64,000 bases of DNA, from NCBI GenBank assembly GCA_963769605.1, contig CAVYML010000003.1:490562-554561 (forward strand), written 5' to 3'. Source of the stretch: Ignavibacteriota bacterium (lineage in GTDB: Bacteria; Bacteroidota; Ignavibacteria; UBA10030). Within the stretch, counting starts at the first letter, position 1; each line of letters opens with the position of its first letter. A program made the translations under genes and the position numbers. Positions 18,003 to 64,000 of the stretch are shown in pieces. The notes beneath the pieces are model-generated. The model searched no databases and was not told the DNA's origin. It saw only the letters and a program-made list of their open reading frames with translations.

Positions 18003-21000
18003 GTGAAGCTAAGAAGCACAGAATATATATATTTTTCGGCGAAAAGAACCGCATTATTTTGTGCCGTTGTGTTTTTGCTGACGGTGCTTTATGCTCGCAA
18101 ATTGCCGGCGGATGGTTTTCCTCTCATCGGAGAGAACCAGCCGTTCATGAACGATACAACTTCTGTGGAATCGCCTTTCTCCAACGCGTATTCCGCAAGA
18201 CATGCACGCGCAGCACAGGATCGCGCCGCCTATTTCAATGCTTTGCGTTCTTCGCAAAATGCATCTTTTGCCCGCTATGACAGTTTACTGCTGGTACATC
18301 GGGACTCCTCTGCAAGAGTTGCGCAATTCAAATATGTTCGAAAAGATAATCCGGTTGTCGACGGTTCCTATCACAAAAATCTCCCATTGTTCCTTAACGA
18401 ACCGCTGGCCGTTTATTATAAGGATGAATTAGACTCAACGCGATGGGTCTATCGAATCCGCCGCATCGTTGACGATATCGATACGCGTATTCCGCTTGAT
18501 ATTCCTCTGGAAGAATACACCGATCTGCGGATGAAGAAAGCAATCCGGAAGAACTGGGAATCGATCTTACAGGCTTCACAATCCGCACAGCAAAAACAAG
18601 ATGCTCTGGCAAACTTGTTCAGTTCCGTGACAAACATTGAAATTCCCATTCCACAAAACCCCCTTTTTAGTATCTTTGGAAAAAATTATGTGCGATTCCA
18701 AATTACCGGAGGAATCGATATCCATGCGGCATTTCAAAATGTCAAAAGCGATCTCTATACGACGACTGTCAATCAATCAACGAGTACTCCCGAGTTCTCT
18801 CAACAACTGCAGTTCACTTTAAACGGTGAAGTAGGCGATAAGCTGAAAGTGAGCGCGGACTGGAATACGCAGCGTACCTTCGATTACGAAAACCAGATGC
18901 ACATAAATTATAGAGGCTATGATGACGATATTATTCAAAGCGTCGAAGCCGGCAACGTTTCACTGCAAACAAATTCATCTTTTATATCGAGCAGTCAAGC
19001 CTTGTTCGGCATTAAAATGGGGATGCAGTTCGGACCTTTGAAATTGACTGCTATTGCCAGCCAGAAGAAAGGACAGATCAAATCACTCTCGGTCAACAGC
19101 GGCTCCTCTTCCACGACGTTCAATATACGCCCCAGCCAGTATTCTCAAAATTACTATTTTATTGATACGAGTTATATCGGCCTCTATGGCGATTGGTATC
19201 TCGGGAAAAACCACGTCACGAACCATCCGGAAAAAACGGTGCAATATATTGAAGTATGGGTTTCGCGTATAGGGGCGGTCTCTACAAAAGAAAAAAAAGT
19301 CATCGCGTTTATGAGCCAGGACTCTGTCCTGCAATATCAGAAGAATCGTCCTCCAGCCTCGATGAATTACAGCGGGACCGGGAATGGGGAAATGGAAGCC
19401 GGAGCTTTTGTGCCGCTGATCAATGGAACGGATTATACGATCAATCAGTATATCGGAGTCATATCTCTGAAAACAGCTTTACAAACGAATCAGGCAATAG
19501 CGGTAGCGTATACCGCCGGGCCGCTGGGCGGGCCAACCACAACGATAGGTAATTCCGGTTCTCAGACGACCGGCGATTCAAGCTGGCTCGTTATGAAGCT
19601 TGTCCGGCCGCTAAATCTGGCTTCTAATCCATTCTTGAAAACCGGATGGAAGATGATGCTCAAAAGCCATTATGCAATCGGCGGCGGCGGTATCAGCGCG
19701 AACAATTTTTCCATGAAGATTCAATATCAACCATCGGGAGAGACCGCTGTCGATAATGTTCTTTCGCAAAATATCGGTGTTATGACCATGCTCGGCATGG
19801 ATCGTTATAACGGTCCAAATAATGACAACGGGCCCGATAAAATTTTCGACTACATCCCCGACTTTACCGTCGACTCAGTCCGCGGGGAAATTATCTTCCC
19901 GACCGTTCAGCCTTTTGATAGCGCCTCAATAGCATATTTTTTAGCTTCAACAAATCCCACATTGCCCTCAACGCAACAACTCACGTCCGCGCAAATAACA
20001 GCAGCCGCAGATTCTTTAAATTTCAATAATCTCTACGACACGACGGCTTCGGCAGCCGATGTAGATCCGCGGAGCCGCTATATTATTACCGGAACGGCTA
20101 CATCAAGCGTTCAATCGCAATACAGCGTCGGAACGAATATCGTCGAGGGAAGCGTCGTTGTGACGGTCGACGGCCAGCCGGCGGTCTTAAATACGGACTA
20201 TACCGTAGATTATGTCTCCGGGACAATTACAATTAGAAATCCGTCTTTTCTTACAGCGGGACGGAATGTTCAGATAAAATATGAAGCAAACGACCTCTTC
20301 CAGCTTGCATCGAAAACACTTCTTGGTGTACGCGGAGAAATTGCCATCAACCGCAGCACGGCGCTTGGCTTTACCGTTATGAACTTGAACGAACAGTCGC
20401 TGACCGATAAGGTGCGTCTGGGGGATGAACCGACCAATAATACGATTTATGGCTTGGATGCAAGCACGAGCTTTGATGCGCCTTTTTTAACAAAGATATT
20501 GAACTGGCTTCCGGGTATCCATACCATCGAAAAATCAAGAGTCTCACTGAAGGGAGAATACGCATACATGTCTCCCGACCCGAATACCCGGACAAGTCCT
20601 GTCCCTGAAGACGGCGGAAAGAGCGTGGCCTATATAGACGATTTTGAAGGATCTCTTCAAACAATGCCGATCAGTGTCGCGTATACTTCGTGGAAGGAAG
20701 CCAGCCCGCCATATTATATTTCAACGATAGATACAGCTTATGCTATAGACGGAATTACAAAAACCGTCTCTACAGACCCGGTGAATACGATTATGGCAGA
20801 TACGGATAAGATGGAATATAAAGCTCATACGACATGGTTCACCATAGCCTCAAGCGATGTTCAGATCACAGATATTTGGGGATCAAGAAGGCAGGCCGTA
20901 TCCGGACAAAGCCAGGTCACGGTTTTAAATATGTATTTCGATCCCGCCCAGAGAGGAACATATAATTATTCTCAAAATTTGTTTACCAAATTATTTCTGA

Positions 21001-24000
21001 ATCCCACAAAAGCCTGGGGTGGAGCACAGCTTGCTCTCGGCACATCAACAACGAACCTCGCCGATCAAAATATAAATTATATTCAGATGTGGGTAAAAAT
21101 TGTCGCTGGACAACCTACAGTAAAACTTAACATTGATCTCGGCTATATCAGTGAAAAGTCTTATCCTTTAGGCGGGAATACTTTGATGACTGAAGACGGT
21201 TTGGATAATCATGGAATTCCGACCGGTCTTATGCATCAGGATGAGGATGCAGGTATCGACGAATTAAGCGACGATCAGGAGAAACATAAATTTTCGAACT
21301 TCCGCAATGCTTATGCTGGCACACGACTTGCAGGTGCATTTGATAATGATCCATCGGGCGACGATTGGAAGCAGCCGCCAACGAGTATTAACGGGTCGCT
21401 TGACACGGGGGCGACTGCAATATCATTCGATGGATGCAATGGTGTCGAGGGCAATTATCAAAGCGAACTCGGATCGCGTTATCCCGATACGGAAGATTTA
21501 AACGGCGATGGAATTATGAATCCGCTGAATTCGTACTTTGAATATGAATTACCGCTGGACACAAACAATGCCGTCTTCGCGCAATATGTTACGGGAGTGG
21601 GAAATAACGGCTGGCATCAAGTCAGTATCCCTCTCGAATATTTTACGCGCCAGATCGGGAGCCCGACGCTTACCGATATCCAGGACATGCGTATCTGGGT
21701 GACCGGAGCAAGCGGCAAAGTTCTGTTCCGGATTGCGAATTTTAATCTTGTCGGCAACCAATGGAGAACCGAAATTCCGAACGATCCCGTGCTGCAAGTA
21801 AGTGCGGTGAACTATCAAGACAATCCGGATTACACACCCCCTGTTCCGCTTATTGTAGATCCGACCATTACAACTCAGACGGTCTATGAGAATGAGCAAT
21901 CTCTCGATCTTATCATAAGCAATCTCCAGCATGGTGATTCCACCAGAGCGGTAAAACTATTCAGTGCGCATCCGATTAATCTCTTGAATTATCATACGAT
22001 GAAAATGTTTCTTCACGGCGAAACACGAAACGATGTTTCGAAAGGGTACAAAGCTTTTGTGTATAAAGATTCGGCGCATTATGATGTGCGGATTGCCTTC
22101 CGGTTCGGGACAGATTCTTCCAATTATTACGAGTACACCGCTCCGCTAAAACCCACTTGGACAAACAACGATATGATTATCCATTTTGCCGACCTATCTT
22201 CCTTAAAGGCATTACGCGACAGTACGGAGGATGTGCATGGCCCTGTACCAAACGGCCTTCCGGGCGCCACTTATTGGATTAGAGGATTTCCGACATTGAC
22301 TGCCATCCAATATATGGCGATAGAAGTCAAGGATCATGATACGACAAAGAACATAAATGGCGAGGTATGGGTAGATGAACTACGTCTGACGGATGTCGAT
22401 AATACGCCGGGCTCCGCTTATAAACTCGATGCAAATATCAAGCTTGCAGATGTAGCCACTATCGGTTTTTCGCTTTCTCATCTCGGTCCAACCTTCCATT
22501 CGCTGGAGGACCAATTCGGCAACCATACAGACATGCTTTCATGGAGTCTTTCTTCGACGATCAACTTTGAAAAGTTCTTGCCTGAGAGCTGGGCCGGCAC
22601 ACAGCTTACCATGTCATATATGCATTCTGAAAATTATCAAAAGCCGCAGTATGTCCCGGGCTCGGATGTTTTAGTGGAACAGGCTGCGCAGCAGGTTGCC
22701 GCAGCGATTGCAAGGGGAGATACTACTGTGACCGTCAAACCGGACGATATTCGTCTTGCATCACAGACGCTGACCGTGACGGACAGTTACGCTCTTCCTT
22801 CACTTCGGCTCAATATTCCGCTGGATACATGGCTTGTCACAAAGACGATCAATCAGATGATATTCGGTTATTCATACAGCTCTACGTTTCAGCGTTCGCC
22901 GACGGTCGAATGGTCGAAATCCTGGACATGGGAAGCGCATGTATCGTATAATATTCAATTTTCTCCTGCGAATTCTTTTAAACCGTTCCACTGGCTGGGG
23001 AAATTTTTCCTTACAAGTATCTGGCAGGATCTTACGATTTATTTTACACCGAGGAACATATCTGTGACGACCTCCTTCACCCGGAGCCAATCGCAGAGCC
23101 AGACTCGATATTCGGCCACCGACAACCCTCTTGTATATAATCTTACAGCATCGCGGTCTTTAAATTTCACATGGCAATGGTTTGAAGGCAAATATCTCGA
23201 CCTGGGCACGAATTATCAGGTCGCAATCGGCAGTACTCTTTATGATCTTGAAACGGATCGATACGGGAACCAGCGATCCTTCTACGATATCCTGAAAGAT
23301 ATGATCTTAAGTGATCGTCTTATCGACTTCGGCGTCGATCAAAGTTATTCGCAGGGCATAACATGGAATCCTCAAATCAAAATTCCCAATACTACGTGGC
23401 TGGGAAAGTTCATCCGTCCATCTCTGCAGTATTCAACTCAGGTACAGCTGGGCGGACAATATCGGCTCCGGCGCTCTGGGGAAAAGTGCGGCCACGAACA
23501 GTTCATTTCGTTTTTCGACAGATATCGACCTGCACTCCATTAGTTCGGCTCTCTGGTCGTCGGATGGATCGTCATCGCCGCTGCCGAATGATACGAGCCG
23601 AAGCCGCGGAATCAAGAAGGCGTCGCAGCAGCTCTCAGCGTTGACAAAATTTCTTTTCAAAGACTTGCTCCTCGACTTTGACAGATTGACGTTCAGTTTT
23701 TCGAATGGCAACAATATCCAAAACACAGAGGTCACGGGTGGAGAAGGGTTCGCAAATCTTTTTGCGCGTGCTCCGTTTATCCAATCTTCCCTGCCGGAAA
23801 ACGGTCCATCGCTTCTCTATCAACTCGGTGTGTCTTCAGATCCTAATGGAAGAGTCGTGCTGGGTACGAAAAATTCTTTCCCGTTTATTACCGGATATAC
23901 CATTCCCGGATTGCGTGCAGACACCGGATTGCCGACGGATATGTTTTCACAAAATAATATGATCACGGTAGGCACCGGCAGGACTCTCTGGGAAGGAGCC

Positions 24001-40152: not shown

Positions 40153-41268
40153 TTACCTTGCATAGGCAAGTTTTAATGTTTTAACTTCCTTCTGATTTGA
40201 TACCGAACCCTCTATCGATAAACGGGCGAAGTATATTCCGCTTGATACATTATGCGGCGCCCATGTCACAGAATGAATCCCTTCATATTGCTGCGAATTC
40301 ACAAGCTCACCGACTAATCTGCCGAGCATGTCGAAGATAACGAGATGCACTTGAGAATATTCCGTCAATTCGTACCGAATGGTCGTGGCTGGATTGAAAG
40401 GATTGGGATAAGAACCGAGGACTGTCGACTGCCCGGCGTTCCCTCCTGCGAGGAGTTGACCGGTTCCGTTTGTATTGTGGAGAACAAAAATTTCTTCTCT
40501 GCCGCTGAAAGTATCGTTGGATGTCGTATCAAAGAAAAAGAACTGACTATCCTCTGTTGCCCCGATGGGTAATCCGCCGTTCGGGCAGTTCGTTATAAAA
40601 AATGTTACAGGCTTGTCGACGTCCGTTTTTAACAGGTTAACGGTAACAGTGGCAATATTATATAACCCTGATGCGAGTGTGTGGTATTCAGGGAATTGAA
40701 GAATAAGCCAATTGATGCGGCCCTGCCCCGGCGGGACAAAATAGTTGGGTGTCCATGCAGTATCGAGATCGCTGCCTTTTTCTACCGAAACGAATTCAAC
40801 TGCGCCGGTATCCGACGCTTGAATCCGGCAGGAATATCCGTTACAGTGTCCGCCTTTTCTATTGCCATCGTTATATCGGATATATATCTTGAGTTTAATA
40901 TTCTGAGAGGACTCTTTATAACCCTGCCTGATTTCGTAGCCGGAAGAATAATCCGGAGCGTTGACAAAGGACGGGGATACGGTAAGAGTTGTGGCAGTGT
41001 TGCTGATAATACTGCGAATTTGTCCTGATCCGCTGCCGCTTGTAATATGAATGTAATTGCCGGCCCATTTATTAAGACTCCAATTTTGATTTGCATCTTC
41101 TATGATTTTGTCAGTCGCCTGTGTAATTGTTCCTGCGCTGCTCTTATCGATCATGATTGAAGAAAATCCAATCTGACCGCTCTGCGCGATGAGAAAAGCG
41201 GTATGCGAAATAGTCAGGAGAACAAAGACAACAATAAAAATATTAAGTGATATCAATTTGGATTTCAT
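40153..41268 (-). CDS. Secreted T9SS substrate: signal peptide plus a C-terminal Por_Secre_tail (CTD) sorting domain.
   Basis: The C-terminus ...GSYPNPFNPATTIRYELTEYSQVHLVIFDMLGRLVGELVN...HSVTWAPHNVSSGIYFARLSI...KTLKLAYAR matches the TIGR04183-type CTD. N-terminal signal peptide. Confidence 0.75.
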   Translation of the reverse strand: MKSKLISLNIFIVVFVLLTISHTAFLIAQSGQIGFSSIMIDKSSAGTITQATDKIIEDANQNWSLNKWAGNYIHITSGSGSGQIRSIISNTATTLTVSPSFVNAPDYSSGYEIRQGYKESSQNIKLKIYIRYNDGNRKGGHCNGYSCRIQASDTGAVEFVSVEKGSDLDTAWTPNYFVPPGQGRINWLILQFPEYHTLASGLYNIATVTVNLLKTDVDKPVTFFITNCPNGGLPIGATEDSQFFFFDTTSNDTFSGREEIFVLHNTNGTGQLLAGGNAGQSTVLGSYPNPFNPATTIRYELTEYSQVHLVIFDMLGRLVGELVNSQQYEGIHSVTWAPHNVSSGIYFARLSIEGSVSNQKEVKTLKLAYAR

Positions 41269-44215: not shown

Positions 44216-45583
44216 ATGAAACAAATCATTAAAGTCCTTGTCGTTGACGACGATGAATCATACCGTGAAGGATTAAAAAGCATTCTCGAAGCAGAAGGAT
44301 ATGAAGTAAAAACTGTCGTCGATGGTATTACGGCTATCAACATTATGCAGTCGAGTCAGTTCGATCTCATACTTCTCGATATTGTCATGCCGATTGTAAG
44401 CGGTATGGATGTATTGAAAAATATCAAGAACAGTTTCTATGAGTGCGAAGTAGTCATGCTGACGGGAGAAAATGATATTCATACGGCCGTTGAAAGCATC
44501 AAACTTGGCGCATACGATTATCTCCTTAAACCATGTTCGGGAACAGAAATTCTTAATACGATCAGCAGAGCGGTCGAGCGAAAACGACTTCTCTTGCAGA
44601 ATAAAGCGCTGAAGACAGAACTTGCAAGAGTTGCTGCATCCACACAGATTGTAACGCAGAATCCGGCAATGCTGGAAATACTGAATTTAGCCATGAAAGT
44701 CGCCCCGACCGATGCGACCGTATTGATTCAAGGGGAAAGCGGGACTGGAAAAGAACTTATTGCAAATTATATCCATAGCAACAGTCTGCGGAAAGAACAG
44801 CCGTTCGTTGTGCTCAATTGTGCTTCCATGCAGGAAACATTGCTTGAGAGCGAACTTTTTGGGCACGAAAAAGGTGCTTTTACGGATGCAAGCAAGGAAA
44901 AACAGGGCCTGGTAGAAATTGCCAATGGGGGAACACTCTTTCTTGATGAGATAGGAGAAATATCGCCTGTTATTCAACCGAAATTGCTGCGGTTTGTTCA
45001 GAGCGGAGAATACCGGAGGCTGGGAGGAACCCGGACATTGCAATCCGACGTAAGAATTTTATCTGCGACCAATAAAAATCTTATTGAGGAAGTGAAGCAG
45101 GGACGTTTTCGGGAAGATCTTTTATATCGGATGAACGTTTTTACTTTGGAATTGCCTCCTTTAAGGAATCACAAAGAAGACATTCCATTTCTTGTCGATA
45201 ATTTTTTAAAGCGGCGATATGGCAAAATAAATGGATGGGAAGTTGCAGAGGATGCGCTTACAGCGCTTCGTCAATATGAATGGCCCGGCAACGTGCGTGA
45301 ATTGGAGAATGTTATAGAGCGTGCGACTATCGTTGCCGATGAACGAACGATACAGTCTAAAGACCTGGCTGTTCTTCTGAGATCGCGGGTATTGAAAAAC
45401 GAATTTGCAGAATCAGGAGATATAGGAATTGGCAAGCTTATTGCACTAAGGGAAATAGAAAAAGTTCATATTTCAGGAGTTCTCAATGCGGTAGGATGGG
45501 ACAAGAATCTCGCGGCAAAAATTCTCGATATTAATATCAAAACACTTTATATAAGAATCCAGACTTATGGACTTACACATTAA
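44216..45583 (+). CDS. Sigma-54-dependent transcriptional activator of the NtrC family (REC-AAA+-HTH).
   Basis: REC, Walker A GESGTGKE, the GAFTDA (GAFTGA) motif, and a C-terminal Fis-type HTH. Confidence 0.9.
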   Translation: MKQIIKVLVVDDDESYREGLKSILEAEGYEVKTVVDGITAINIMQSSQFDLILLDIVMPIVSGMDVLKNIKNSFYECEVVMLTGENDIHTAVESIKLGAYDYLLKPCSGTEILNTISRAVERKRLLLQNKALKTELARVAASTQIVTQNPAMLEILNLAMKVAPTDATVLIQGESGTGKELIANYIHSNSLRKEQPFVVLNCASMQETLLESELFGHEKGAFTDASKEKQGLVEIANGGTLFLDEIGEISPVIQPKLLRFVQSGEYRRLGGTRTLQSDVRILSATNKNLIEEVKQGRFREDLLYRMNVFTLELPPLRNHKEDIPFLVDNFLKRRYGKINGWEVAEDALTALRQYEWPGNVRELENVIERATIVADERTIQSKDLAVLLRSRVLKNEFAESGDIGIGKLIALREIEKVHISGVLNAVGWDKNLAAKILDINIKTLYIRIQTYGLTH

Positions 45584-45738: not shown

Positions 45739-46362
45739 ATGATTACAAAGCAGTCATTAAAAGTACTAATCGCTGAAGATCAGGAAGCCCTCATTCTGCT
45801 GATTCAGCTTCAATTAGAAAAGATCGGACACACAGTTATCGGCAAGGCAATAAATGGTCTTCAAGCGGTTGCACTTGCAGGTCAACTCCGGCCCGACGTG
45901 ATCTTAATGGATATCGAGATGCCCGAAATGGACGGCCTTGAAGCTGCTCGTCTGGTTCAGGAAAAGTATCCCTGTCCTGTAGTGCTGCTTACTTCACACG
46001 ATGAGCCTGAAATGATAAGACGCGCCAGTCAGATAGGTGTCGGAGCTTATCTCCTGAAACCTCCAAGAGCAGGGGAAATTGAACGCGCGATGATTATGGC
46101 GGTTGCACGGTTTGCCGATCTTACGGAACTGCGCCGCCTGAATAACGAATTGAAAATAGCTCTTGAGAATGTGAAGACATTAAGAGGGTTGCTGCCGATC
46201 TGTGCAAGCTGTAAAAAAATCCGGAACGATAAGGGATATTGGGAGGCCGTGGAAGGATATTTCACCAAACACAGCGAAGTCCAATTCTCTCACGGCATTT
46301 GTCCCGATTGCATCAAAAAATATTACCCGGAGTTTATACCGAAGATGTCAAAAAAAGATTAA
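45739..46362 (+). CDS. Response regulator: REC plus a C-terminal 4-Cys (CxxC...CxxC) zinc-ribbon-like domain.
   Basis: REC LIAEDQ...ILMDIEMPEMDG...KP. Tail LPICASCKKIRNDKGYWEAVEGYFTKHSEVQFSHGICPDC. Confidence 0.75.
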   Translation: MITKQSLKVLIAEDQEALILLIQLQLEKIGHTVIGKAINGLQAVALAGQLRPDVILMDIEMPEMDGLEAARLVQEKYPCPVVLLTSHDEPEMIRRASQIGVGAYLLKPPRAGEIERAMIMAVARFADLTELRRLNNELKIALENVKTLRGLLPICASCKKIRNDKGYWEAVEGYFTKHSEVQFSHGICPDCIKKYYPEFIPKMSKKD

Positions 46363-46406
46363 AGATATACCCGTAGCGCAATAATTCCGAAATTCTTCAT
46401 TGTAGT

Positions 46407-46434
46407 CCCGAAGACATTGTCAAATGTCTTCGGG
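46407..46434. promoter_or_regulatory. Perfect 12-bp inverted repeat (hairpin or palindrome) at the 5' edge of the duplicated kinase leader.
   Basis: cccgaagacatt-gtca-aatgtcttcggg. The homologous copy at 50643..50666 keeps the pairing through two compensatory changes. Confidence 0.45.
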
Positions 46435-46699
46435 ATGGTCGCGGATGCTGTAGCTTCGAAAAGATCTAATAATGTTTTCGGGATAGTTTCAGATGTTCCG
46501 AGATCATCCGCGACGATCCGTCGCGGCTACAGTGCGATCAATCCTATTTGGTGAAAATACAATTCTAAGTCAGTGTGATCAGCCCTCAAATTCCGGTTTT
46601 TTATCGGAATTCAATATATATCAGGCAAATCCTCCTCTTTCCCGCATTCTAAAGACTGGCATATCGTGTGTAAAATATACGGAAAGGCAGTAGAGAAAA
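46416..46699 (+). repeat. Copy 1 of the duplicated non-coding leader upstream of the paralogous hybrid kinases.
   Basis: About 80-85% identical to 50651..50982. Shared blocks: attgtcaaat, ggtcgcggatg(c/t)tgtagcttcgaaaa, caatcctatttggtgaaaatacaattctaa, taaagaNctggca. Confidence 0.65.
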
Positions 46700-50542: not shown

Positions 50543-50553
50543 TTTTTAAAAGC

Positions 50554-50584
50554 CGCCTTTCCTCATGGAAGGACGGGCTTTAAA
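50554..50584 (+). terminator. Candidate terminator hairpin after HK1.
   Basis: gccgcctttcc-tcat-ggaaggacgggc (one bulge) followed by TTTAAAT. Confidence 0.3.
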
Positions 50585-50650
50585 TCCATCTTGTGTCCGC
50601 GACGTGCCTGCCTGCTGACGCAGTCGCGCAGGCAGGCCTGTCTCGAAAAT

Positions 50651-50982
50651 ATTGTCAAATATTATCCAAAGGTCGTCGCGGATGTTGTAGCTTCGAAAAC
50701 ATCTGATATTGTTTTCAGGATGGTCTCAGATGCTCACGAGATTATCCGCGACCACCCGCCAGAAGATGAAGCAGGTCGGGCAAGACGGTCGCGGATACAG
50801 AGTTATGTCTCGCGTGTTGCGTCAATCCTATTTGGTGAAAATACAATTCTAACATAGTGCGGTTTATAATTCAAATTCCGAATATTCATTGGAATTTAGC
50901 TGTTCCGGACAAATCTTTCTCTTATCCGATTTTAAAGATCTGGCACACCGTATGCAAAACATAAGAAAAGACTGTAGATCAA
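50651..50982 (+). repeat. Copy 2 of the duplicated leader.
   Basis: Homologous to 46416..46699, with an insertion of about 45 nt. Confidence 0.65.
50941..50956 (+). promoter_or_regulatory. Candidate sigma-54 promoter upstream of HK2.
   Basis: TGGCAC-ACCGT-ATGCA: one mismatch to TGGCAC-N5-TTGCA and correct spacing. It lies 27 nt upstream of ATG 50983. Confidence 0.4.
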
Positions 50983-54042: not shown

Positions 54043-54044
54043 GA

Positions 54045-54070
54045 AAGGGTTCGGAGCGATCCGAACCCTT
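54045..54070 (+). terminator. Perfect 11-bp stem hairpin directly after HK2 (candidate terminator, weak T-tract).
   Basis: aagggttcgga-gcga-tccgaaccctt. Confidence 0.4.
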
Positions 54071-54144
54071 ATCTTGTGAGATTCACTCTTCAAGGGAACG
54101 ATCTCTCAAGAAGCTTTAAACAGTGGCGTGTGGTTGAATCCAAT

Positions 54145-54280
54145 GATTTGCTTCCTTTAATGAATTTGCATAATTTCCTACCGTAATCATAAACTCAGAG
54201 AATACTCCTTGCAGTGTAGTTGTGGGGTTCATCATGATCTCTGGACTTCACTCTCCATTTCATACTAATCTGAGTTCACA
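54145..54280 (+). repeat. Conserved intergenic element, copy A, upstream of HK3.
   Basis: About 70% identical to 59565..59700. Shared core (a/g)ctcagagaatactcctt...ggggNtcat...atctct...tctgagtt, with a ctcaga...tctgag inverted repeat. Confidence 0.55.
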
Positions 54281-54479
54281 ATATTCAATATTCAATATAC
54301 AACACATTGAAAATTGTGCATGGCTTTAAAGAACAATTATATATATGAGGGAAAACACAGAATAAGGCATTTACCTATGTCGTAGAGCTGGTAGATTCCA
54401 CGGTCTTTGTGGAAGCATTAAAAAGATGGTGATTTTTGGACGGTTCTCAATTTACCACTACCCTGAAGGATGAAATCTA

Positions 54480-57400
54480 ATGAAAAACAAGTCTATCGAA
54501 ACAATACCGTTGAGAATCTTATTCCTTAACGACTCATCCCGGCGTGCTGAAATTATCAGGAAATTACTCATCAAAGCAGGATATGATCTCAAAGTGGATT
54601 GCACTGCTACCGAAAAAGAATATACGACGCTGCTTCGCAACAATAGGTATGATATTATTTTTTCCGATTTCAAACTTCCCGGATTTGATGCTTTCAAAGC
54701 CTTACGCTTGCATAATGATATCTGTCCGAGTGTTCCGTTTATTTGTATCTCTGGATCCATTGGTGAAGAACTCGCTGTTGAGTTGATAAAACAAGGAGCA
54801 GCAGATTACATTCCGAAGGCTCGACTAGCAAAACTTCCCGCGGCTGTAAAACATGCACTTGATGAAGCAGAGGGGAAAGAAAAACAACGGCAAGCAGAAA
54901 AAGCATTGAATGAAAGCGAAGAACGATTCCGTCAATTGTTTTTTGCTTCTTCTGATGCAATAATGTTGATTGATCCTTCTGACCTTTCCGTCGACTGGCC
55001 AATTGTTGACTGCAATAAAGCCGCGTGCCAGATGAACGGGTATACTCGAGAAGAATTAATTGGTAAGTCAATAAATAATCTCAACATCACTGAGGGAATG
55101 CCTCAAAAGCGAGCGACATACCTAGAAAACGTGAGACGAAAAGGTGTGTTGCATCTGGAAACTTTCCATCGCCATCACGATGGTCATATTTTCCCTATTA
55201 AGGTCTCAACGTCTATCATTACGTATAAGGAACATGAGTTAGTTTTAGAGATTGACAGCAATATTACTGAAGGCAAGCATGCGGAAGAGATCGTTCGGGA
55301 GTCTGAAGAAAGATTTCGAATGGTATTCGAAAATGTGTTTGACGGCATCAGCATTTACAACGAAGATCCCGATCCGTTCAAGAGAAAGCTCATTGATTGT
55401 AATGGACAGTATGCCGCCATGGCAGGCCGAAATCGTGAGGAACTGTTGCAGCACAGCAACACGAAAGAGCTCCAGATAACGCTTGATGAGACGGCAAATG
55501 ATAATCGTTTAGAATCGCTTGCTAAGGGAAAGGCATACCGGGGTCTCTTTTCATGGATCCGACCGGACGGAAAGGATAATATTATCGAATATGTGGGTGT
55601 GCCGGTTACATGGAAGGGTAAATCGTACTCAATCGGGATTGATCGCGACATCACCGAACGCAAACGAGCCGAAGAGGCTCTGCAATTGGAATATAATCGT
55701 CATAAACGGTTTATCGAATCAGATATTATCGGTATGACTATTATGGCCGCCGATGGAAAGATTATTGAAACAAACGATTATTATCTTAACATGCTCGGAT
55801 TTACACGCAAGGAATTCGAGTCCGGAAAAGTTAATTGGCGGGCGATAACACCGACCGAATGGCTGCCTTTAAACGATAAAGCGATGACGGAATTACGTGA
55901 ACGAGGAACTTGCCTGCATTATGAGAAGGAATATAGAAGGAAAGACGGAACGCGTATTCCGGTACTTGTTACATATACCTTACTTCCTGGACCGGAAGAA
56001 CAGATTGGTACATTTGTACTGGATTTAACCGAGCACAAACGGGTGGAGGAATCCTTACGAAAAAGTGAGGCGCAACTACGCGCCGTTCTCGATGCCACGC
56101 CATTTCCCATTGCATTAGTCGATGTTTTAGATAATAATATTGAATACTGGAGCCGCAGCGCTCTTACTCTTTTCGGACATACTGCACCCACCGCAACTGA
56201 GTGGTATCAGAAAGCATACCCGGATCCCGATTATCGGCGCAAGATTATAGATCGATGGAAAGTTTTTTTGGAAAAGGCGAAGATATCCGCTCAAGCGATC
56301 AACACTGGAGAATACCGGGTCACTTGCCGCGATGGATCGGTTCGTATTTGTGAACTCTATGCCGCTTTCGTGGCAGACAGACTTATTGTCACATTCAGTG
56401 ACATCACAGAACGCAAGCAGGCTGAAGAGGAGCTTATTAAGGAACAGAACCTGCTCAGAGCGCTTATGGATACTATGCCCGACCACATCTATTTTAAAGA
56501 TCTCGAAAGCCGTTTTATCAGGGTTAACAAAGCTGAAGCTGCAATATTTGGCATAAGCGATCCCGCCCAGGCTTTGGGTAAAACAGATTTTGACTTCTTC
56601 ACAGAGGAGCATGCCCGTCCGGCATTTGAGGCCGAGCAAGAAATCATAAAAACCGGACAACCCACGATGGGTTTAGAGGAAAGAGAAACATGGCCGGATG
56701 GCCGGGAAACCTGGGTTTCAACAACCAAAGTTCCACTTTATGATAAAGACGGGAAAATCACAGGTACTTTTGGCATCTCCAGAGATATTACTGATCATAA
56801 ACTGATGCAGGAGGAGCTGCGAAAAAATGAGGAACGCTTCCGAAAAATCTTTGAAGAGAGCCAAATCGGCGTCATGCTGTCGGATCCGGATTTCAGGTAT
56901 ATAAAGGTCAATCCTGCATTTTGCAATATGTTGGGCTACACGGCGAGTGAGCTTGCCTCTATGAGTTTCATCGATATCACTCATCCGGATGATATTGGCA
57001 AAGATATTGAGAATATGAGCAAATTGAAAATCGGGGAAATTCCATTCTATAGAACAGAAAAAAGATACCTCCGTAAAACTGGCGAGATTGTTTGGGTAAA
57101 CATCGTGGTAAGCTGTATACGCAATAATAATGGAACGCTTTTATATAATGTGGGCATGATTGAGAACATTACACAACGTAAGCAGGAAGAGCAGGAAATC
57201 AGCAGACTCAACCGTATCTATGCCGTTCTAAGCAATATCAATCAATTGATTGTGCGTGAAGGAGATAGACAGACATTGCTGAATGAAGCGTGCGAGATTG
57301 CCGTTCAAGACGGCGAATTCCAGATGTCGTGGGTTGGGATTTTTGACGCTGAAACAGATTCGTTCCAGCCTGTCGCCAGCGCGGCTAAAGAAAGCGGATA

Positions 57401-59276
57401 CCGGGAACAACTTCACACATCCATAGCTCAAATCATGGCTGGAAGAGAACCATTATGGAGGATTCTCATTGACGGTCAAATTATAATTTGCAACGATATT
57501 GAACATGATGATCGACTGAAATCTCAGCGGGAAAAGACGCTTGCCCTTGGCTATCGCTCTCTGGCTGCATTTCCGCTTCATATCGATGACGAAATCATAG
57601 GGGTCGTAAATTTCTATTCAAGCGAGAAAGACTTTTTTAATGAGGAGGAATTGAAACTTCTTGAAGAACTCGCGTCGGATGTTTCTTATGCGCTTCATTC
57701 CTTAGAATTAGAGGATCAACGGTTGCAAAGTGAAATAAAAATGAAGGAGAGTGAGAATAGATATCGCCGTATTTTTGAGAATGTGCAGGATGTATATTAT
57801 GAGGCATCGATCGACGGTACAATACTCGAAATAAGCCCTTCCATTGAGATGATATCGAAGAAACAATATAAAAGGGACGAACTCATAGGGAAGTCGATGA
57901 ACGAGTTTTATCCCAATAAAGGAGAACGGCAGGCTTTCCTATCGGCAATACAGGAGCGGGGGAGTGTTACGGATTACGAAGTAACGCTGAAAAACCGGGA
58001 CGGTTCAATCATTCCCTGTTCTATTTCAGCAAAATTACAATTTGATGCTCAAGGCAATCCGGAAAAAATCATAGGCAGTATCATTGATATCACCGAGCGC
58101 AAACTGTATCAGAGTCAACTGATGCAGAACCAAAAAGTACAAAGCATCGGCACATTAGCAGGAGGAATTGCACATGATTTTAACAATATACTCGGTATCA
58201 TTCTTGTGTTTACTTCTATTTTGGAACAGTCGGAAGGGGACAAAGAAAAGATATCAAAAAGTACGATAGCAATCAATCAAGCAGTTCATCGCGGTGCGGC
58301 GCTTGTCCGTCAGATTCTGACCTTTGCACGGCAAACGGGTGTATCGATGAAGCCGATGAGGATTCCTGATTTGATCCGCGAACTCGTTGTTATGCTCAAA
58401 GAAACATTTCCCGCAGTAATCGAATTTCAGACGAACGTAGAAATGGATATTCCTATCATCAATGCCGATCAATCACAAATGCATCAGGTTCTGCTGAACC
58501 TTTGCGTAAATGCGAGGGACGCAATGCCGAAAGGCGGTATCATTGGCATTGAAGTAAAAAAAGTCGCATCCGAAACAGTTATCCGGCAATTTCCCAAAGC
58601 CGAAAAAGGCCGCTATATCTCGATCAGCGTCTCTGATACGGGCACCGGCATGGATGAAGCAACAAAAAGTTGTATTTTCGATCCGTTCTTTACAACAAAA
58701 GAACAGGGGAAGGGAACCGGTCTGGGATTATCCGTTGTCTATGGCGTTATTCAGGAACATCATGGTTTTATCTCAGTTGAAAGCGAGATAGGACAGGGGA
58801 CGACATTTCACATGTATCTACCAGTACCACAAGAGGAAAAAAAGCTCAATGATATTGAAAAAGTTAAAACAGAAGCAACTCAGGGCGGATCTGAAACCAT
58901 CCTTTTTGTAGAAGATGAATTGCTTTTACGAGAGGTCGTACAATCGACGCTTGAATCGAACGGTTATAAGGTGCTCATTGCTGCCGATGGTCGTCAGGCT
59001 GTTGAAATCTACAAGAAGCAGTATAAAGATATTTCTCTTGTTCTCACCGATATGGGATTACCCAAGCTGACGGGAATAGATGAATATGCAATGCTCAAAG
59101 AAATAAATCCCAATGTCAAAGTCATTTTTGCAAGCGGCTTTATCTCATTCGATACAAGATCTGAACTCCTTAAAGAAGGAGTGAAAGGATTCATTCTGAA
59201 ACCGTACAATCTTAATGAAGTACTCGAGATGGTGAGAGAGATATTAAATGAGGATAAGAATAACAAGCCGCTCTAA
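54480..59276 (+). CDS. Hybrid sensor kinase HK3: N-terminal REC, multiple PAS, GAF, PAS, HisKA, HATPase, C-terminal REC.
   Basis: 1598 aa. H-box GIAHDFNNILGII. Several PAS modules are near-identical to those in HK1 and HK2. Confidence 0.9.
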   Translation: MKNKSIETIPLRILFLNDSSRRAEIIRKLLIKAGYDLKVDCTATEKEYTTLLRNNRYDIIFSDFKLPGFDAFKALRLHNDICPSVPFICISGSIGEELAVELIKQGAADYIPKARLAKLPAAVKHALDEAEGKEKQRQAEKALNESEERFRQLFFASSDAIMLIDPSDLSVDWPIVDCNKAACQMNGYTREELIGKSINNLNITEGMPQKRATYLENVRRKGVLHLETFHRHHDGHIFPIKVSTSIITYKEHELVLEIDSNITEGKHAEEIVRESEERFRMVFENVFDGISIYNEDPDPFKRKLIDCNGQYAAMAGRNREELLQHSNTKELQITLDETANDNRLESLAKGKAYRGLFSWIRPDGKDNIIEYVGVPVTWKGKSYSIGIDRDITERKRAEEALQLEYNRHKRFIESDIIGMTIMAADGKIIETNDYYLNMLGFTRKEFESGKVNWRAITPTEWLPLNDKAMTELRERGTCLHYEKEYRRKDGTRIPVLVTYTLLPGPEEQIGTFVLDLTEHKRVEESLRKSEAQLRAVLDATPFPIALVDVLDNNIEYWSRSALTLFGHTAPTATEWYQKAYPDPDYRRKIIDRWKVFLEKAKISAQAINTGEYRVTCRDGSVRICELYAAFVADRLIVTFSDITERKQAEEELIKEQNLLRALMDTMPDHIYFKDLESRFIRVNKAEAAIFGISDPAQALGKTDFDFFTEEHARPAFEAEQEIIKTGQPTMGLEERETWPDGRETWVSTTKVPLYDKDGKITGTFGISRDITDHKLMQEELRKNEERFRKIFEESQIGVMLSDPDFRYIKVNPAFCNMLGYTASELASMSFIDITHPDDIGKDIENMSKLKIGEIPFYRTEKRYLRKTGEIVWVNIVVSCIRNNNGTLLYNVGMIENITQRKQEEQEISRLNRIYAVLSNINQLIVREGDRQTLLNEACEIAVQDGEFQMSWVGIFDAETDSFQPVASAAKESGYREQLHTSIAQIMAGREPLWRILIDGQIIICNDIEHDDRLKSQREKTLALGYRSLAAFPLHIDDEIIGVVNFYSSEKDFFNEEELKLLEELASDVSYALHSLELEDQRLQSEIKMKESENRYRRIFENVQDVYYEASIDGTILEISPSIEMISKKQYKRDELIGKSMNEFYPNKGERQAFLSAIQERGSVTDYEVTLKNRDGSIIPCSISAKLQFDAQGNPEKIIGSIIDITERKLYQSQLMQNQKVQSIGTLAGGIAHDFNNILGIILVFTSILEQSEGDKEKISKSTIAINQAVHRGAALVRQILTFARQTGVSMKPMRIPDLIRELVVMLKETFPAVIEFQTNVEMDIPIINADQSQMHQVLLNLCVNARDAMPKGGIIGIEVKKVASETVIRQFPKAEKGRYISISVSDTGTGMDEATKSCIFDPFFTTKEQGKGTGLGLSVVYGVIQEHHGFISVESEIGQGTTFHMYLPVPQEEKKLNDIEKVKTEATQGGSETILFVEDELLLREVVQSTLESNGYKVLIAADGRQAVEIYKKQYKDISLVLTDMGLPKLTGIDEYAMLKEINPNVKVIFASGFISFDTRSELLKEGVKGFILKPYNLNEVLEMVREILNEDKNNKPL

Positions 59277-59409: not shown

Positions 59410-59564
59410 TATTATCCCAGCTTATAGTAAGCCCCAATTCGATAACTGCTAAAAGTTCATTCAATTGATTTCGAAGGGCAAGAGGCCGACAAAATTGGAA
59501 ATCAATAGTTTGCAGCGGTCAATGATGTTTAAAAATGCATAAGACTGTTCGCTCATAACTCGAT

Positions 59565-59700
59565 GATTTGCTTTCCTCGGTGAATTCTTGTAACTTTTGC
59601 TCCAAGGTTATAAGCTCAGAGAATACTCCTTATAGTGCGGCCGCGGGGCTCATTGTTATCTCTTGACTATACCGTACTTATTGCTGTAGTCTGAGTTTGA
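59565..59700 (+). repeat. Conserved intergenic element, copy B, upstream of HK4.
   Basis: See copy A. Confidence 0.55.
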
Positions 59701-59718
59701 CGAAGGGATATCATTACC

Positions 59719-62700
59719 ATGAAAAACCCTGGAAAGAAGAACTCCTGGACTGGTTACACTCTCCTTCTGATATTTATCCTCCTGTCGGTATGCATACTCA
59801 TCGGCGGCTATATCGGTTACGTAAACTATAGGCAAAACTATCGTACTGCGGTTGAAAAACAACTTTCGGCCGTGGCAGAATTGAAAGTTGATCAGCTTGA
59901 AGATTGGCGGAACGAACGCTGGGGCGATGGGCTGTTCTTTTACAGGAATGACGAGTTTTCCGCTCTTGTAAAAAGGTTCATAGGGAACCGGAACGATCGG
60001 GGCGCAAAGACGGGAATTTTGACATGGGTAGGACAAGTACAAAGCGCTAATAGATACGATCTCATGATGCTGCTGGATGCACAATTAAATACGATATTAG
60101 TATTTCCGGAGAAGAAGGAACGAGTTCGATTAGTAATCGATCAAAAAAACATTGAAATACTTCTGTCGGGAAATATGGCTTTTCAGGATTTTTATCGAAA
60201 TGATAAAGATCATCGCATTTATTTGAAAGTCCTTATCCCGATTATCGATTCTCACTCTTCAAATCGATTGGCTGCCGTTCTTGCACTCCGGATTAGTCCG
60301 GAGGATAACATTTTTCCTATCATCAAAAAATGGCCCACCCCAAGCCGAACGTCTGAAACTTTAATTATCCGCAGGGAAGGAAACGAAGCGCTGTTTCTTA
60401 ATGATCTTAAATTTCATAGCGATGCGGCATTGAATTTACGGATTCCGTTGGTAAATAAAGATGTTCCCGCAGTGAAGGCAGCGTTAGGCCAGACGGGAAT
60501 TGTCGAAGGTTTAGACTATCGCGGAATTCCGGTCATTGCCGATGTGCGCGCTGTTCGGAATTCCCCCTGGTTCATTATCGCCAAAATGGATATGGAGGAA
60601 ATGAACGCACCTCTCAGAGAAAGATTATGGATGATGGTCATTCTTATTGGCGCTTTACTTGGTAGTGTAGGCGCCTGTGTGGGTTTGGTTTGGCGCCGGC
60701 AGATCGGTCGTTTTCATCGGGAACAGTATAAAGCGGCGGAGACGCTGCGTAATTCAGAGGAACGATATCGCCGGCTCTTTGAAGCGGCGAGAGATGGCAT
60801 TCTGATACTCGATGCTGAAACAGGAATGATCACAGATGTGAATCCGTTTTTGATCGAGATGCTGGGTTATTCGCATGAAGTTTTTTTAGGAAAAAAGATT
60901 TGGGAGTTGGGATTATTCAAAGATATTATAGCTAATCGGGAAAAATTTTTAGAATTACAGTTGAAGGAGTATATCTATTATGAATCTCTGCCGTTAGAAA
61001 CCATCAATGGCCAAACGATCAATGTGGAGTTTGTTAGCTTCGTTTATCGTGTAAATCAATGCAAAGTCATCCAATGCAATATTAGAGACATCACCGAACG
61101 CAAACGGGTGGAGGAAGCGGTACTGGCAAGCGAAGCACGCTATCGGTCTTATATTGAGGCGACAGGTCAAATTGGATGGGTTACTAATGCTAACGGAGAA
61201 GTTGAAGAGGATGTGCCGTCCTTGAGGAAATTTAGCGGTCAGACCTATGAAGAGGCCAAAGGTTCAGGATGGGCTAAAGCCATTCATCCTGATGACCTTG
61301 AGCGAACCTTGCAGGTATGGAATAATGCTGTTGCCACAAAAAGCTTCTATGAGATCGAATACCGCATGCGCAGACATGATGGAGTTTATCCATATCTGCT
61401 GACACGTGGTTTCCCTATATTTCGAGAAGACGGAAGCATCCGGGAATGGGTTGGCACCTGTATCGACATAACCGAGCGCAAACGGGCAGCACAGGAACTG
61501 CAGGAGCGCGATGCCAGATACAAAACGCTTGTTGAGAACATCCCGCAGAAGATTCTCATGAAGGACCGGAATTACATGTGGGTCTCGATCAACGAGAACC
61601 TCGCCCGTGACTTCGGTCGCCGGCCCGAGGAAGTGGTGGGCAAGATGGATGTCGACCTGTTTACGCCGGAACTTGCCGCCAAGTACCATTCCGACGATGT
61701 CAGGATCATGGAGAGCGGGAAGACCGAAGAGTTAGAAGAAAAGTATATGGTAGCCGGGAAAGAAACCTGGGTCAACACTATCAAGACGCCAGTCCGGGAC
61801 AAAAACGGCGATATAGCAGGCCTGCTCGGAATCTTCTGGGATATAACCGAACGCAAGCGGGCAGAGGAAGAGATTAAACGTTTAAACGATGGACTTGAAG
61901 AGAGTGTAAAACAACGTACTATTCAATTACATGATGCACTGGAACTAAATCGAAAAATTATTAATACATCTTCCCTGGGTATTTTTGCTTGTAGAGAAGA
62001 TGGGCCCTGTATCATAGCAAACCCGGCTGTCGCGAGAATATCGGGTGCGTCAGTTGATCAAATGTTGAAAATCAATTTTCGTGAACTCGATTCGTGGAAA
62101 AAGAATGGCTTGTTCTCTAAAGTCGAAATTGCATTGCAGACCCAGGAGGAACAAATGGAGGAAATCCATTTGACTACGGCATTCAATAGAGATGCCTGGA
62201 TTAACTATTACATTACAACGTTCAGAAGTGAGGGCAAATTACATTTCCTAATGACTGTTGAGAACATTACTAAACGCAAACTTGCCGAACAAGAGCGGGA
62301 GGTGCTCGTGCAGCAAATACAGCAACGGTCGTCACTTTTGGAAGCGGCGAATAAGGAATTAGAGGCCTTCAGTTACTCAGTGTCGCACGATCTGCGTGCA
62401 CCATTGCGTCATGTCAACGGATTCGTGGAACTGTTGGGCAAACAATTTCAAGCCGAAATGTCCGAAAAAGGACGGCATTATCTGGATACGATTACAGATT
62501 CCGTACACCAGATGGGTGTGCTGATTGATGATCTGTTGAATTTTTCCAGAAGCGGGCGCGTGGATATGCGTGAATCAACTTTTGAAATGAATCAGATAGT
62601 TAAGGAAGTGTCGGAACAAATACGCCAGGATAATTCTCAGCGCGTTATCGAATGGTCCATAGCTCAGTTGCCATCTGTCCATTGCGACAACGCAATGCTG

Positions 62701-63057
62701 CATCTTGTCTGGGAAAATCTTCTGAGTAATGCTGTTAAGTTCACATGTAAAAGAAAAAAAGCCAGCATCGAGATTGGAGTTCATGAAGAGGACAAGGAGT
62801 TTGTATTTTTTGTGCGCGACAATGGGGTTGGGTTTGACATGCGGTACGCTCAGAAACTTTTCGGCGTCTTTCAACGGCTCCACTCCGCGTCCGAATTTGA
62901 AGGAACCGGCGTAGGACTGGCAAATGTTCGGCGCATCATTATGCGTCATGGCGGACGCACATGGGCAGAAGCCGAACTGGAAGATGTGCCTGCCGGCAAG
63001 GCAGGAGGAGCAACATTCTATTTCACATTACCCAGACATAATAAGGAGAAACCATGA
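59719..63057 (+). CDS. Sensor histidine kinase HK4 with a periplasmic (Cache-like) sensor domain, PAS domains, HisKA and HATPase.
   Basis: 1112 aa. TM near the N-terminus, a periplasmic region of about 280 aa, then a second TM. H-box SVSHDLRAPLRHVNGF. G-boxes. Confidence 0.9.
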   Translation: MKNPGKKNSWTGYTLLLIFILLSVCILIGGYIGYVNYRQNYRTAVEKQLSAVAELKVDQLEDWRNERWGDGLFFYRNDEFSALVKRFIGNRNDRGAKTGILTWVGQVQSANRYDLMMLLDAQLNTILVFPEKKERVRLVIDQKNIEILLSGNMAFQDFYRNDKDHRIYLKVLIPIIDSHSSNRLAAVLALRISPEDNIFPIIKKWPTPSRTSETLIIRREGNEALFLNDLKFHSDAALNLRIPLVNKDVPAVKAALGQTGIVEGLDYRGIPVIADVRAVRNSPWFIIAKMDMEEMNAPLRERLWMMVILIGALLGSVGACVGLVWRRQIGRFHREQYKAAETLRNSEERYRRLFEAARDGILILDAETGMITDVNPFLIEMLGYSHEVFLGKKIWELGLFKDIIANREKFLELQLKEYIYYESLPLETINGQTINVEFVSFVYRVNQCKVIQCNIRDITERKRVEEAVLASEARYRSYIEATGQIGWVTNANGEVEEDVPSLRKFSGQTYEEAKGSGWAKAIHPDDLERTLQVWNNAVATKSFYEIEYRMRRHDGVYPYLLTRGFPIFREDGSIREWVGTCIDITERKRAAQELQERDARYKTLVENIPQKILMKDRNYMWVSINENLARDFGRRPEEVVGKMDVDLFTPELAAKYHSDDVRIMESGKTEELEEKYMVAGKETWVNTIKTPVRDKNGDIAGLLGIFWDITERKRAEEEIKRLNDGLEESVKQRTIQLHDALELNRKIINTSSLGIFACREDGPCIIANPAVARISGASVDQMLKINFRELDSWKKNGLFSKVEIALQTQEEQMEEIHLTTAFNRDAWINYYITTFRSEGKLHFLMTVENITKRKLAEQEREVLVQQIQQRSSLLEAANKELEAFSYSVSHDLRAPLRHVNGFVELLGKQFQAEMSEKGRHYLDTITDSVHQMGVLIDDLLNFSRSGRVDMRESTFEMNQIVKEVSEQIRQDNSQRVIEWSIAQLPSVHCDNAMLHLVWENLLSNAVKFTCKRKKASIEIGVHEEDKEFVFFVRDNGVGFDMRYAQKLFGVFQRLHSASEFEGTGVGLANVRRIIMRHGGRTWAEAELEDVPAGKAGGATFYFTLPRHNKEKP

Positions 63058-63518
63058 GAGATTTAAGAACAATTCTGTTGGCGGAGGACAATCCGAAGGA
63101 TATCGAATTGACTCTTGAAGCTTTATATGAACATAACCTTGCAAATCAGGTTATTGTAGTGAAGGACGGCGTGGAAGCATTAGAATTTCTCCGTTGCGAA
63201 GGAAATTACAAGATGCGTCGAAAGGGAATGCCGGTCGTGCTCCTGCTGGATCTCAAAATGCCCCGCATGGATGGCCTGGAAACATTGCAAGCCATTCGAA
63301 GCGATGCCGCGCTGAAAATGCTCCCTATCGTTATGCTTACATCTTCTCGCGAGGAACAGGATCTGATAAAAAGTTACGAATTTGGAGTTAATGCCTATGT
63401 TGTCAAGCCTGTTGATTTCAAAGAATTTGTAAATGCGGTAAAGCAAGTCGGTATCTTTTGGGCGATGATTAATGAAATACCACCTATAGGGGGCTCTTCC
63501 AATGGAGAAAAAAGCTGA
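63054..63518 (+). CDS. Single-domain CheY-like response regulator.
   Basis: ILLAEDNPKD...LLLDLKMPRMDG...KP. Start overlaps the HK4 stop (ATGA). Confidence 0.85.
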   Translation: MRDLRTILLAEDNPKDIELTLEALYEHNLANQVIVVKDGVEALEFLRCEGNYKMRRKGMPVVLLLDLKMPRMDGLETLQAIRSDAALKMLPIVMLTSSREEQDLIKSYEFGVNAYVVKPVDFKEFVNAVKQVGIFWAMINEIPPIGGSSNGEKS

Positions 63519-64000
63519 TAGAAACGACAAATTAAAAGTACTCTGTCTTGAGGATTCGCCGCAAGACGTTGAACTCATGCGAGAGTTGTTGACCGAAGCG
63601 GGATTTGAACTGGACATGGACTGTACTATGGTGGAAGAGGAATTTGTCTCGTTTCTTCGCCGCAGTATCTACGATATCATTCTTGCGGATTTTAAATTGC
63701 CCGGCTTTGATGCCTTCGGTGCGCTGCGGCATGCTGCGGAAATTTGCCCCGAAGTTCCGTTCATCTGTGTCTCCGGAACGATTGGAGAGGAATCGGCTGT
63801 AAAGCTTTTAAGACAGGGAGCGGTTGATTATGTATTAAAAGACAGAATGACAAGACTTCCTGCTGCCATCAAGCGCGCGCTTATTGAAGCAAAAGAAAAA
63901 TTACTGCACAAACAGGCGGAGGAAGCGCTCAATTTAGAATATTCCCGCCACAAGCGATTCGTTGATTCAAATATCGTCGGTGTTGTTATCGCTGCTGCAA
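63502..64000 (+). CDS. 5' part of another REC-PAS sensor protein. It runs off the window edge.
   Basis: ATG 63502. Its REC and first PAS segments resemble the N-terminus of HK3 (...LPGFDAF...PFICVSG...LEYSRHKRF...). Confidence 0.8.
   Translation, partial: MEKKADRNDKLKVLCLEDSPQDVELMRELLTEAGFELDMDCTMVEEEFVSFLRRSIYDIILADFKLPGFDAFGALRHAAEICPEVPFICVSGTIGEESAVKLLRQGAVDYVLKDRMTRLPAAIKRALIEAKEKLLHKQAEEALNLEYSRHKRFVDSNIVGVVIAAA

Follow-up and report, generated by a model that had tools for sequence, protein, structure and literature searches.

A short non-coding element upstream of two giant sensor kinases in an Ignavibacteriota kinase array, most likely a duplicated promoter region

Homologous non-coding DNA has been recorded upstream of genes under the name of putative mobile promoters (PMPs), which require an alignment of the upstream regions of 50 nt or longer with no less than 80% identity (Matus-Garcia et al. 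2012, Nucleic Acids Res 40:10032, PMC3488235). Two-member families were the commonest class in the PMP survey, and mechanism (iii) among those considered is duplication through recombination (PMC3488235). In this study, a stretch of 64,000 nt (hereafter the window) was analysed, in which an intergenic element of about 135 bp stands upstream of HK3 and again upstream of HK4, two kinases of one array, and promoter reuse of the PMP kind is the closest described phenomenon. Like PMPs, the two copies are homologous non-coding DNA before genes with non-homologous 5' ends, and they arose by mechanism (iii); as in PMPs, neither the downstream 5' ends (the N-terminal regions of HK3 and HK4 give no blastn or blastp alignment) nor the upstream genes (the last 300 nt of HK2 and HK3 give no blastn match at E<1e-4) align. 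Unlike PMPs, the best 50-nt window of the pair reaches 38/50 (76%) against the required 40/50, the pair being older and more diverged, and both copies lie undispersed within 5.4 kb of a single paralogous-kinase array. The element is outside every RNA family, MITE family and inverton class tested. It is real but ordinary, most likely a promoter with adjacent operator DNA, and was duplicated in a rapidly rearranging kinase array; it represents no new element class, and in practice it is mainly useful as a marker for tracing the rearrangements of the array.

The initial annotation had reported two intergenic copies that align over their full length at about 70% identity, lie before two different kinases and end 20-200 nt ahead of the start codons. 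We confirm that the element is real, non-coding and located 5' of two different kinases (Table 1); its positions and full-length alignment hold, with a slightly lower identity of 65-68%. MAFFT, the repeat search and global alignment gave 95/140 identical positions (67.9%) with four gap columns, while 87/133 positions (65.4%) are identical over the element columns of a four-sequence alignment, and the local alignment score of the two copies stands at z=19.7 against shuffles. Each copy starts with ATTTGYTT (54146 in copy A, 59566 in copy B), and the copies end 196 nt ahead of the HK3 start codon and 13 nt ahead of that of HK4; across the three contexts now known the distance is 13, 174 or 196 nt. 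The two kinases do differ at their N-termini, that of HK3 being a receiver domain and that of HK4 a membrane anchor with a dCache-like sensor. No reading frame on either strand is open in all four known copies. An upstream mini-ORF (ATGATTTGCTT..., MICF..) was rejected because its ATG is missing in the related locus L037, which reads TCGATTTGC, and a minus-strand small ORF following AAGGAG (reverse complement of the core) was rejected for its immediate stops and the absence of a common ATG.

Within the element, a 17-mer core, CTCAGAGAATACTCCTT, is exactly shared (54194-54210 and 59615-59631), and no other match to it at three mismatches or fewer occurs in the window; for the overall identity of the pair, this 17-base identical run is mildly unusual (shuffle p=0.024; p=0.10 for the best 23-nt window). 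In both copies TCTGAGTT follows 58 nt past the core (54269-54276 and 59690-59697) and is complementary to AACTCAGA, over 8 bp in the HK3 copy and over 10 bp, two G-U pairs included, in the HK4 copy. The common core and its distal reverse complement are thus present as first proposed; the helix, then said to enclose about 90 nt, extends over 85-89 nt with its arms, and the enclosed stretch is 69 nt. Sequence blocks of the 135-bp module include CTCAGAGAATA, TTGACT and TCTGAG, and those kept in fixed register in all four copies are ATTTG, TGAATT, CTCAG, GAATA, ATCTCT, GACT and TCTGAGTT, with a single 1-nt indel overall.

Table 1. Coordinates of the element copies, their parts and the neighbouring genes in the window
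Feature	Position	Strand	Remarks
Element copy A	54143..54283	+	upstream of HK3; nhmmer E=3e-38 (3-sequence model), 1e-35 (4-sequence model)
Element copy B	59563..59705	+	immediately 5' of HK4; nhmmer E=2e-46
Conserved core, copy A	54189..54210	+	ATAAACTCAGAGAATACTCCTT; CTCAG and GAATA invariant in 4/4 known copies
Conserved core, copy B	59610..59631	+	ATAAGCTCAGAGAATACTCCTT; CTCAG and GAATA invariant in 4/4 known copies
Inverted-repeat 5' arm, copy A	54192..54199	+	AACTCAGA; pairs with 54269-54276
Inverted-repeat 3' arm, copy A	54269..54276	+	TCTGAGTT; invariant in 4/4 copies; overlaps candidate -10 TAATCT (54266-54271)
Inverted-repeat 5' arm, copy B	59611..59620	+	TAAGCTCAGA
Inverted-repeat 3' arm, copy B	59690..59699	+	TCTGAGTTTG; overlaps candidate -10 TAGTCT (59687-59692)
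Candidate promoter P2, copy A	54242..54271	+	TGGACT, 18 nt, TAATCT; conserved blocks, variable spacer of fixed length; predicted
Candidate promoter P2, copy B	59663..59692	+	TTGACT, 18 nt, TAGTCT; predicted
Candidate promoter P1, copy A	54148..54176	+	TTGCTT, 17 nt, TAATTT; predicted
Candidate promoter P1, copy B	59568..59596	+	TTGCTT, 17 nt, TAACTT; predicted
AT-rich filler	54284..54369	+	86 nt separating copy A from the REC relic
REC relic	54370..54479	+	decayed, frameshifted 3' end of a receiver gene; collinear with 63394-63501; 60% identity, z=8.7 against shuffles
HK3	54480..59276	+	1598-aa hybrid PAS/GAF kinase with N-terminal receiver domain; HK5 paralogue
HK4	59719..63057	+	1112-aa kinase: transmembrane and dCache-like sensor, PAS domains, kinase domain
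REC	63054..63518	+	single-domain receiver gene after HK4
HK5 start	63502..64000	+	runs past the window end; 1720 aa in same-species contig L059 (10449-15611)

The distribution of the element is very narrow and lineage-restricted, and it does not form a dispersed family. The element profile found no third copy in the window. When the exact core was sought in 185,579 species genomes (one per species), 32 of the 33 matches were due to chance, with no similarity past the 17-mer, and the sole true match came from an Ignavibacteriota MAG (L020/L037), where a copy 92.5% identical to copy B lies 5' of the HK4 orthologue and the exact core occurs once in the whole MAG. A metagenome scan with a pattern that left both helix arms free returned 19 matches, all by chance. 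Contigs of the same species as the window (L058-L061, 99.9% identical) were reached via HK4 and HK1/2 homologues, and a diverged copy, about 70% identical to either window copy (nhmmer E=4e-23), was found in L062 before a third kinase, HKx. The element is missing before HK4 orthologues at 60-83% amino-acid identity (L034, L035, L036, L038, L063 and L064) and from L065, a relative with an HK1/2 gene of 77% DNA identity and the array HK1/2-REC-HK4-REC-HK5, and its profile found no copy over 30 other loci; the search for further copies, which covered the window, the species genomes, metagenomes and these loci, thus yielded none outside the kinase array. Two of the HK4 orthologues, in L038 and L062, are close (86-91% DNA identity) and yet have no element copy before them, so that it is dispensable for HK4 there. 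In these two loci, homology with the window runs up to a breakpoint at the HK4 start codon, and about 510 nt of unrelated non-coding DNA (L038 359-891, L062 7546-8054), mutually 86% identical, replaces the element.

The second copy can be traced to segmental duplication and deletion within the array, on the evidence of the paralogy of HK3 and HK5 and of a decayed receiver gene. HK5, a kinase with a receiver N-terminus that follows HK4-REC in same-species contigs, shares 65% amino-acid identity with HK3 overall, and their DNA identity is 62% at the N-terminus, 80% in the middle and 89% over the C-terminal 2.8 kb. This homology extends 106-110 nt 5' of the HK3 start codon, into the REC relic, such that HK3 is preceded by an element copy, the 86-nt filler and the relic, in this order. 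A single old event agrees with the comparable divergence of the element (68% identity), the relic (60%) and the N-terminal coding DNA (62%). Three genomes have the element as the first conserved feature past an HK1/2-type gene, but the kinase that it heads differs: HK3 in the window, HK4 in L037, which has no HK3-type gene in the interval from HK1/2 to the element, and HKx in L062, whose N-terminus is 48% identical to that of HK4. The array clearly undergoes reshuffling, with the element staying at its head. In the simplest history, the ancestral place of the element would have been after the HK1/2-type gene, heading an HK4-REC-HK5 operon; the unit element-HK4-REC-HK5 would have been duplicated, and HK4 together with most of REC deleted from the first duplicate, which would have left the control region before HK3, itself a diverged copy of HK5, with the other control-region copy staying before HK4.

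A simple tandem-duplication junction was rejected, because the DNA 3' of HK3 and that 3' of HK5 are not homologous past the stop codon, and for the same reason extra rearrangements are needed. Derivation of the filler from REC or HK4 was rejected as well, the similarity being non-significant (p=0.15-0.18), and neither blastx nor blastn supported a descent of the element from a degraded receiver gene, for instance the additional REC of L065. The initial annotation had named, as what would refute its regulatory candidates, a lack of additional copies and of covariation together with an identity explained by local duplication along with the N-termini of the kinases, and this is largely what was found. 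The duplication is indeed local, but what marks it is the REC relic 5' of HK3 and the paralogy of HK3 and HK5; the N-termini of HK3 and HK4 as such were not part of it.

The pattern of conservation argues, with moderate strength, that at least the 5' half of the element and two blocks of its 3' half are functional, in view of constraint above the synonymous level, blocks in fixed register and flanks that do not align. Between the window and L037, 65 of 67 positions of the 5' half are identical (97%) against 264 of 310 third codon positions of HK4 (85%; Fisher p=0.007), while the 3' half, at 59/67, changes at the synonymous rate. The differences in the 3' half avoid ATCTCTTGACT and TAGTCTGAGTT, and five of the eight fall in the 18-nt spacer between these two blocks. 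On both sides of the element, the flanking intergenic DNA of the window, L037 and L062 is unalignable, and a single 1-nt indel over the 135 nt of the element compares with six gap columns in the 110 of the REC relic.

We hold, with restrained confidence, that the element is probably a lineage-specific upstream control region of the giant PAS kinase cluster in an uncultured Ignavibacteriota bacterium, most likely a sigma-70-type promoter together with regulator-binding sequence. The element would then work as DNA, and if it is a promoter/operator, the HK3 and HK4-REC-HK5 transcription units would be wired to a common input and receive the same transcriptional signal. As in a sigma-70 promoter, two hexamer blocks flank a fast-evolving spacer of fixed length (18 nt in P2, 17 nt in P1), the distance to the ribosome-binding site is sensible, and a longer constrained stretch lies upstream; unlike in a typical sigma-70 promoter, the hexamers reach at most 8/12 against the E. 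coli consensus, a level frequent by chance. The best site, P2 of copy B (TTGACT-18-TAGTCT), scores 8/12, 55% of shuffles hold a site as good, and no site within either element passes a threshold of 9/12; consensus scores therefore cannot choose among the placements, of which at least three (P1, P2 and GAGAAT as a -10) can be drawn, and the hexamer assignment follows from the conservation pattern only, weak consensus matches being common by chance. ATCTCT-GACT and TCTGAGTT are invariant in the four copies with no indel between them, and such blocks at rigid spacing around a fast-evolving spacer fit a promoter, as far as sequence comparison can tell. P2 (TTGACT-18-TARTCT) is our favoured placement of the -35 and -10; in copy B it would start transcription about 19 nt ahead of the HK4 ATG, just 5' of a GAAGGGA ribosome-binding site, and the constrained 5' half would then represent putative regulator-binding DNA at roughly -40 to -135. 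Under P1, the core would become part of the transcript. The retained inverted repeat of 8-10 bp, in which all three changes turn A-U into G-U, is as compatible with an RNA helix as with a -10 box.

Other promoter types were considered and rejected. A Bacteroidetes-type promoter (-33 TTTG, -7 TAnnTTTG) was set aside since TAnnTTTG is absent from all 24 upstream regions of the window (4.8 kb in total), compared with a genome-wide frequency of 0.29 per kb, and the element itself has only TAATTTCC and TAACTTTT. By eye, the element has no GG/GC pair at the spacing that a sigma-54 promoter requires, whereas HK1 and HK2 have one, and an alternative -10 of the form YATAAR just 5' of the core was rejected because its spacer varies between 14 and 16 nt among the copies. 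We found no paper on promoters of Ignavibacteriota, a phylum without a described promoter grammar. If the element is a promoter/operator, its blocks would give a first candidate set for this phylum, and it would also provide a small, concrete case of a promoter being reused while multi-PAS kinases rapidly arise, fuse and disappear.

HK1 and HK2 are tandem paralogues whose upstream regions of about 340 nt (46362-46699 and 50543-50982) align at 67%, and each has a sigma-54-like -24/-12 box about 30-45 nt ahead of its start codon (TGGCAT-N5-GTGTA at 46657-46672 in HK1, TGGCAC-N5-ATGCA at 50941-50956 in HK2). An NtrC-type sigma-54 activator is encoded just 5' of the pair (44216-45583). With these boxes and the nearby activator gene, the promoter class of HK1 and HK2 is probably not that of HK3 and HK4.

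The alternative that survives best, though we regard it as unlikely, is a structured 5' leader, in which transcription would begin from P1 (at about 54184 and 59604) and the transcript would carry a domain of about 95 nt closed by the AACUCAGA/UCUGAGUU helix; with the same low likelihood, such a leader would set the stability or translation of the kinase mRNA, or bind a protein or ligand. All four copies retain the outer helix; 95% of the cells of its 10 bp are paired, a share that falls to 12-48% once one side is shifted by 1-3 columns, a test that favours the helix because the structure was derived from the same four sequences. All three changes within it turn A-U into G-U, which RNA of the plus strand tolerates and which would leave C-A mismatches on the opposite strand. 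The most constrained part of the element is the 5' half with the core, the 3' arm of the HK4 copy ends 3 nt ahead of the ribosome-binding site, and sub-sequences of 90 nt give folds a little more stable than those of shuffled sequence (z=-2.0 and -1.4), although the full 141-nt copies show no such advantage (z=-0.6 for both). Against a leader, the helix shows no compensatory double change: no pair changed on both sides, six being invariant and three changed on one side, in four sequences that give low power, and the RNAalifold covariation term is unfavourable at +1.67.

Like the cis-regulatory 5' leaders of Rfam, the element lies upstream of coding genes and has a conserved long-range helix around approximately 70 nt; unlike these leaders and riboswitches, it belongs to no Rfam family, lacks covariation, a common inner structure (the copies do not share their inner helices) and an expression platform, and stands at a variable distance from the start codon. 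Among 4227 Rfam families, the only matches in the window were two tRNAs, and permissive scans of both element regions (E up to 10) gave only 12-22 bits, far under the gathering thresholds. Because the distance to the start codon varies with context (13, 174 or 196 nt), control at the ribosome-binding site cannot be common to all copies. An anti-Shine-Dalgarno role of ACUCCUU was rejected, since L062 has ATTTTTT in its place and the ribosome-binding site lies at distances between 13 and 196 nt; a hairpin of the HK4 copy (59587-59614) was likewise rejected, being unconserved in the HK3 copy and broken in L037. The helix is not followed by a terminator, and the HK4 copy continues directly into the ribosome-binding site, for which reasons an independent small RNA, one of the candidates of the initial annotation, is not supported; the regulatory leader and the protein-binding module that it listed beside it are both live options, together with the promoter.

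Less likely again than a leader is that the similarity is a non-functional leftover, i.e. remains of duplicated intergenic DNA with no role of its own before HK3. The divergence of the element (65-68% identity) is indeed near that of the pseudogene relic and of the paralogous N-termini, the 3' half changes between species as fast as synonymous sites do, the longest identical run is only marginally unusual by either shuffle test, and L038 and L062 lost the copy before HK4. However, a mere leftover is at odds with a 5' half conserved above synonymous sites (p=0.007), with the single 1-nt indel set against the gap columns of the relic, and with the sharp-edged island that the element forms in three genomes between unalignable intergenic flanks. 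In addition, HK3 lies behind a terminator-like hairpin (54043-54075) and needs some promoter; this hairpin matches the 3' end of an sRNA model, far under the threshold of that family.

A bolder combination, which we consider doubtful and rank below a leftover, is that of a portable cassette placed repeatedly before HK3, HK4 and HKx, whose transcript would carry a leader of about 90 nt closed by AACUCAGA/UCUGAGUU. If true, several sensor kinases would be coordinated by a cis-regulatory RNA that is new and confined to this lineage.

Mobile or switchable DNA, be it a MITE/REP-like repeat, a promoter cassette moved by a transposase or a promoter inverton with repeats of 8-10 bp, is very improbable: like MITEs and REPs the element is a short non-coding intergenic repeat with an inverted repeat, its edges are identical and sharp in four contexts before three non-homologous 5' gene ends, and the region is prone to rearrangement and has other palindromic repeats, but the inverted repeat is internal (its 5' arm lies 49 nt inside the element, and the element ends are not complementary), there is no target-site duplication (the flanks of the four copies have no common direct repeat in alignment columns 1-16 and 152-165), and the two copies in 64 kb are undispersed, every known copy lying within a single kinase array. 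A true match to the exact core exists once in the related MAG and in none of the other species genomes, and metagenomes gave chance matches only. At 69 bp, the segment would make a very short inverton. Orientation does not differ among four same-species assemblies and two other species, the copies of the window, L058, L059, L060, L037 and L062 all giving full-length model matches on the strand of the gene. Among 17 neighbouring proteins scanned with Pfam, none was a recombinase or transposase. The MITE-like repeat suggested by the initial annotation accordingly finds no support.

Several minor observations concern the array and its surroundings. HKx (L062 2037-7265) is a chimeric-looking kinase of 1742 aa, of which the first 848 aa resemble HK4 (48% identity) and the last 512 aa resemble HK3/HK5 (66-67%), and its first approximately 35 nt are almost identical to the start of the adjoining HK4 orthologue, pointing to gene conversion or to a fusion of array members. 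Palindromic repeats of the GTCGCGG(A/C)T type, with arms of 11-25 nt, occur in intergenic DNA before HK1 and before HK2 (46433-46530 and 50592-50799 in the window) and after HK5 (L058 15678-15748); they are REP-like and may be recombination substrates for the rearrangement of the array. Elsewhere in the window, a pdxH-like (pyridoxamine-phosphate-oxidase) gene at 13407-14029 is split, near a T run, into the overlapping ORFs 13407-13724 and 13706-14029, and is either a pseudogene or an assembly homopolymer error. An SprA-like protein and a Por-secretion-tail protein (18003-23543 and 40153-41268) point to a type IX secretion system, which fits the Fibrobacteres-Chlorobi-Bacteroidetes (FCB)/Ignavibacteriota origin suggested by the related MAG.
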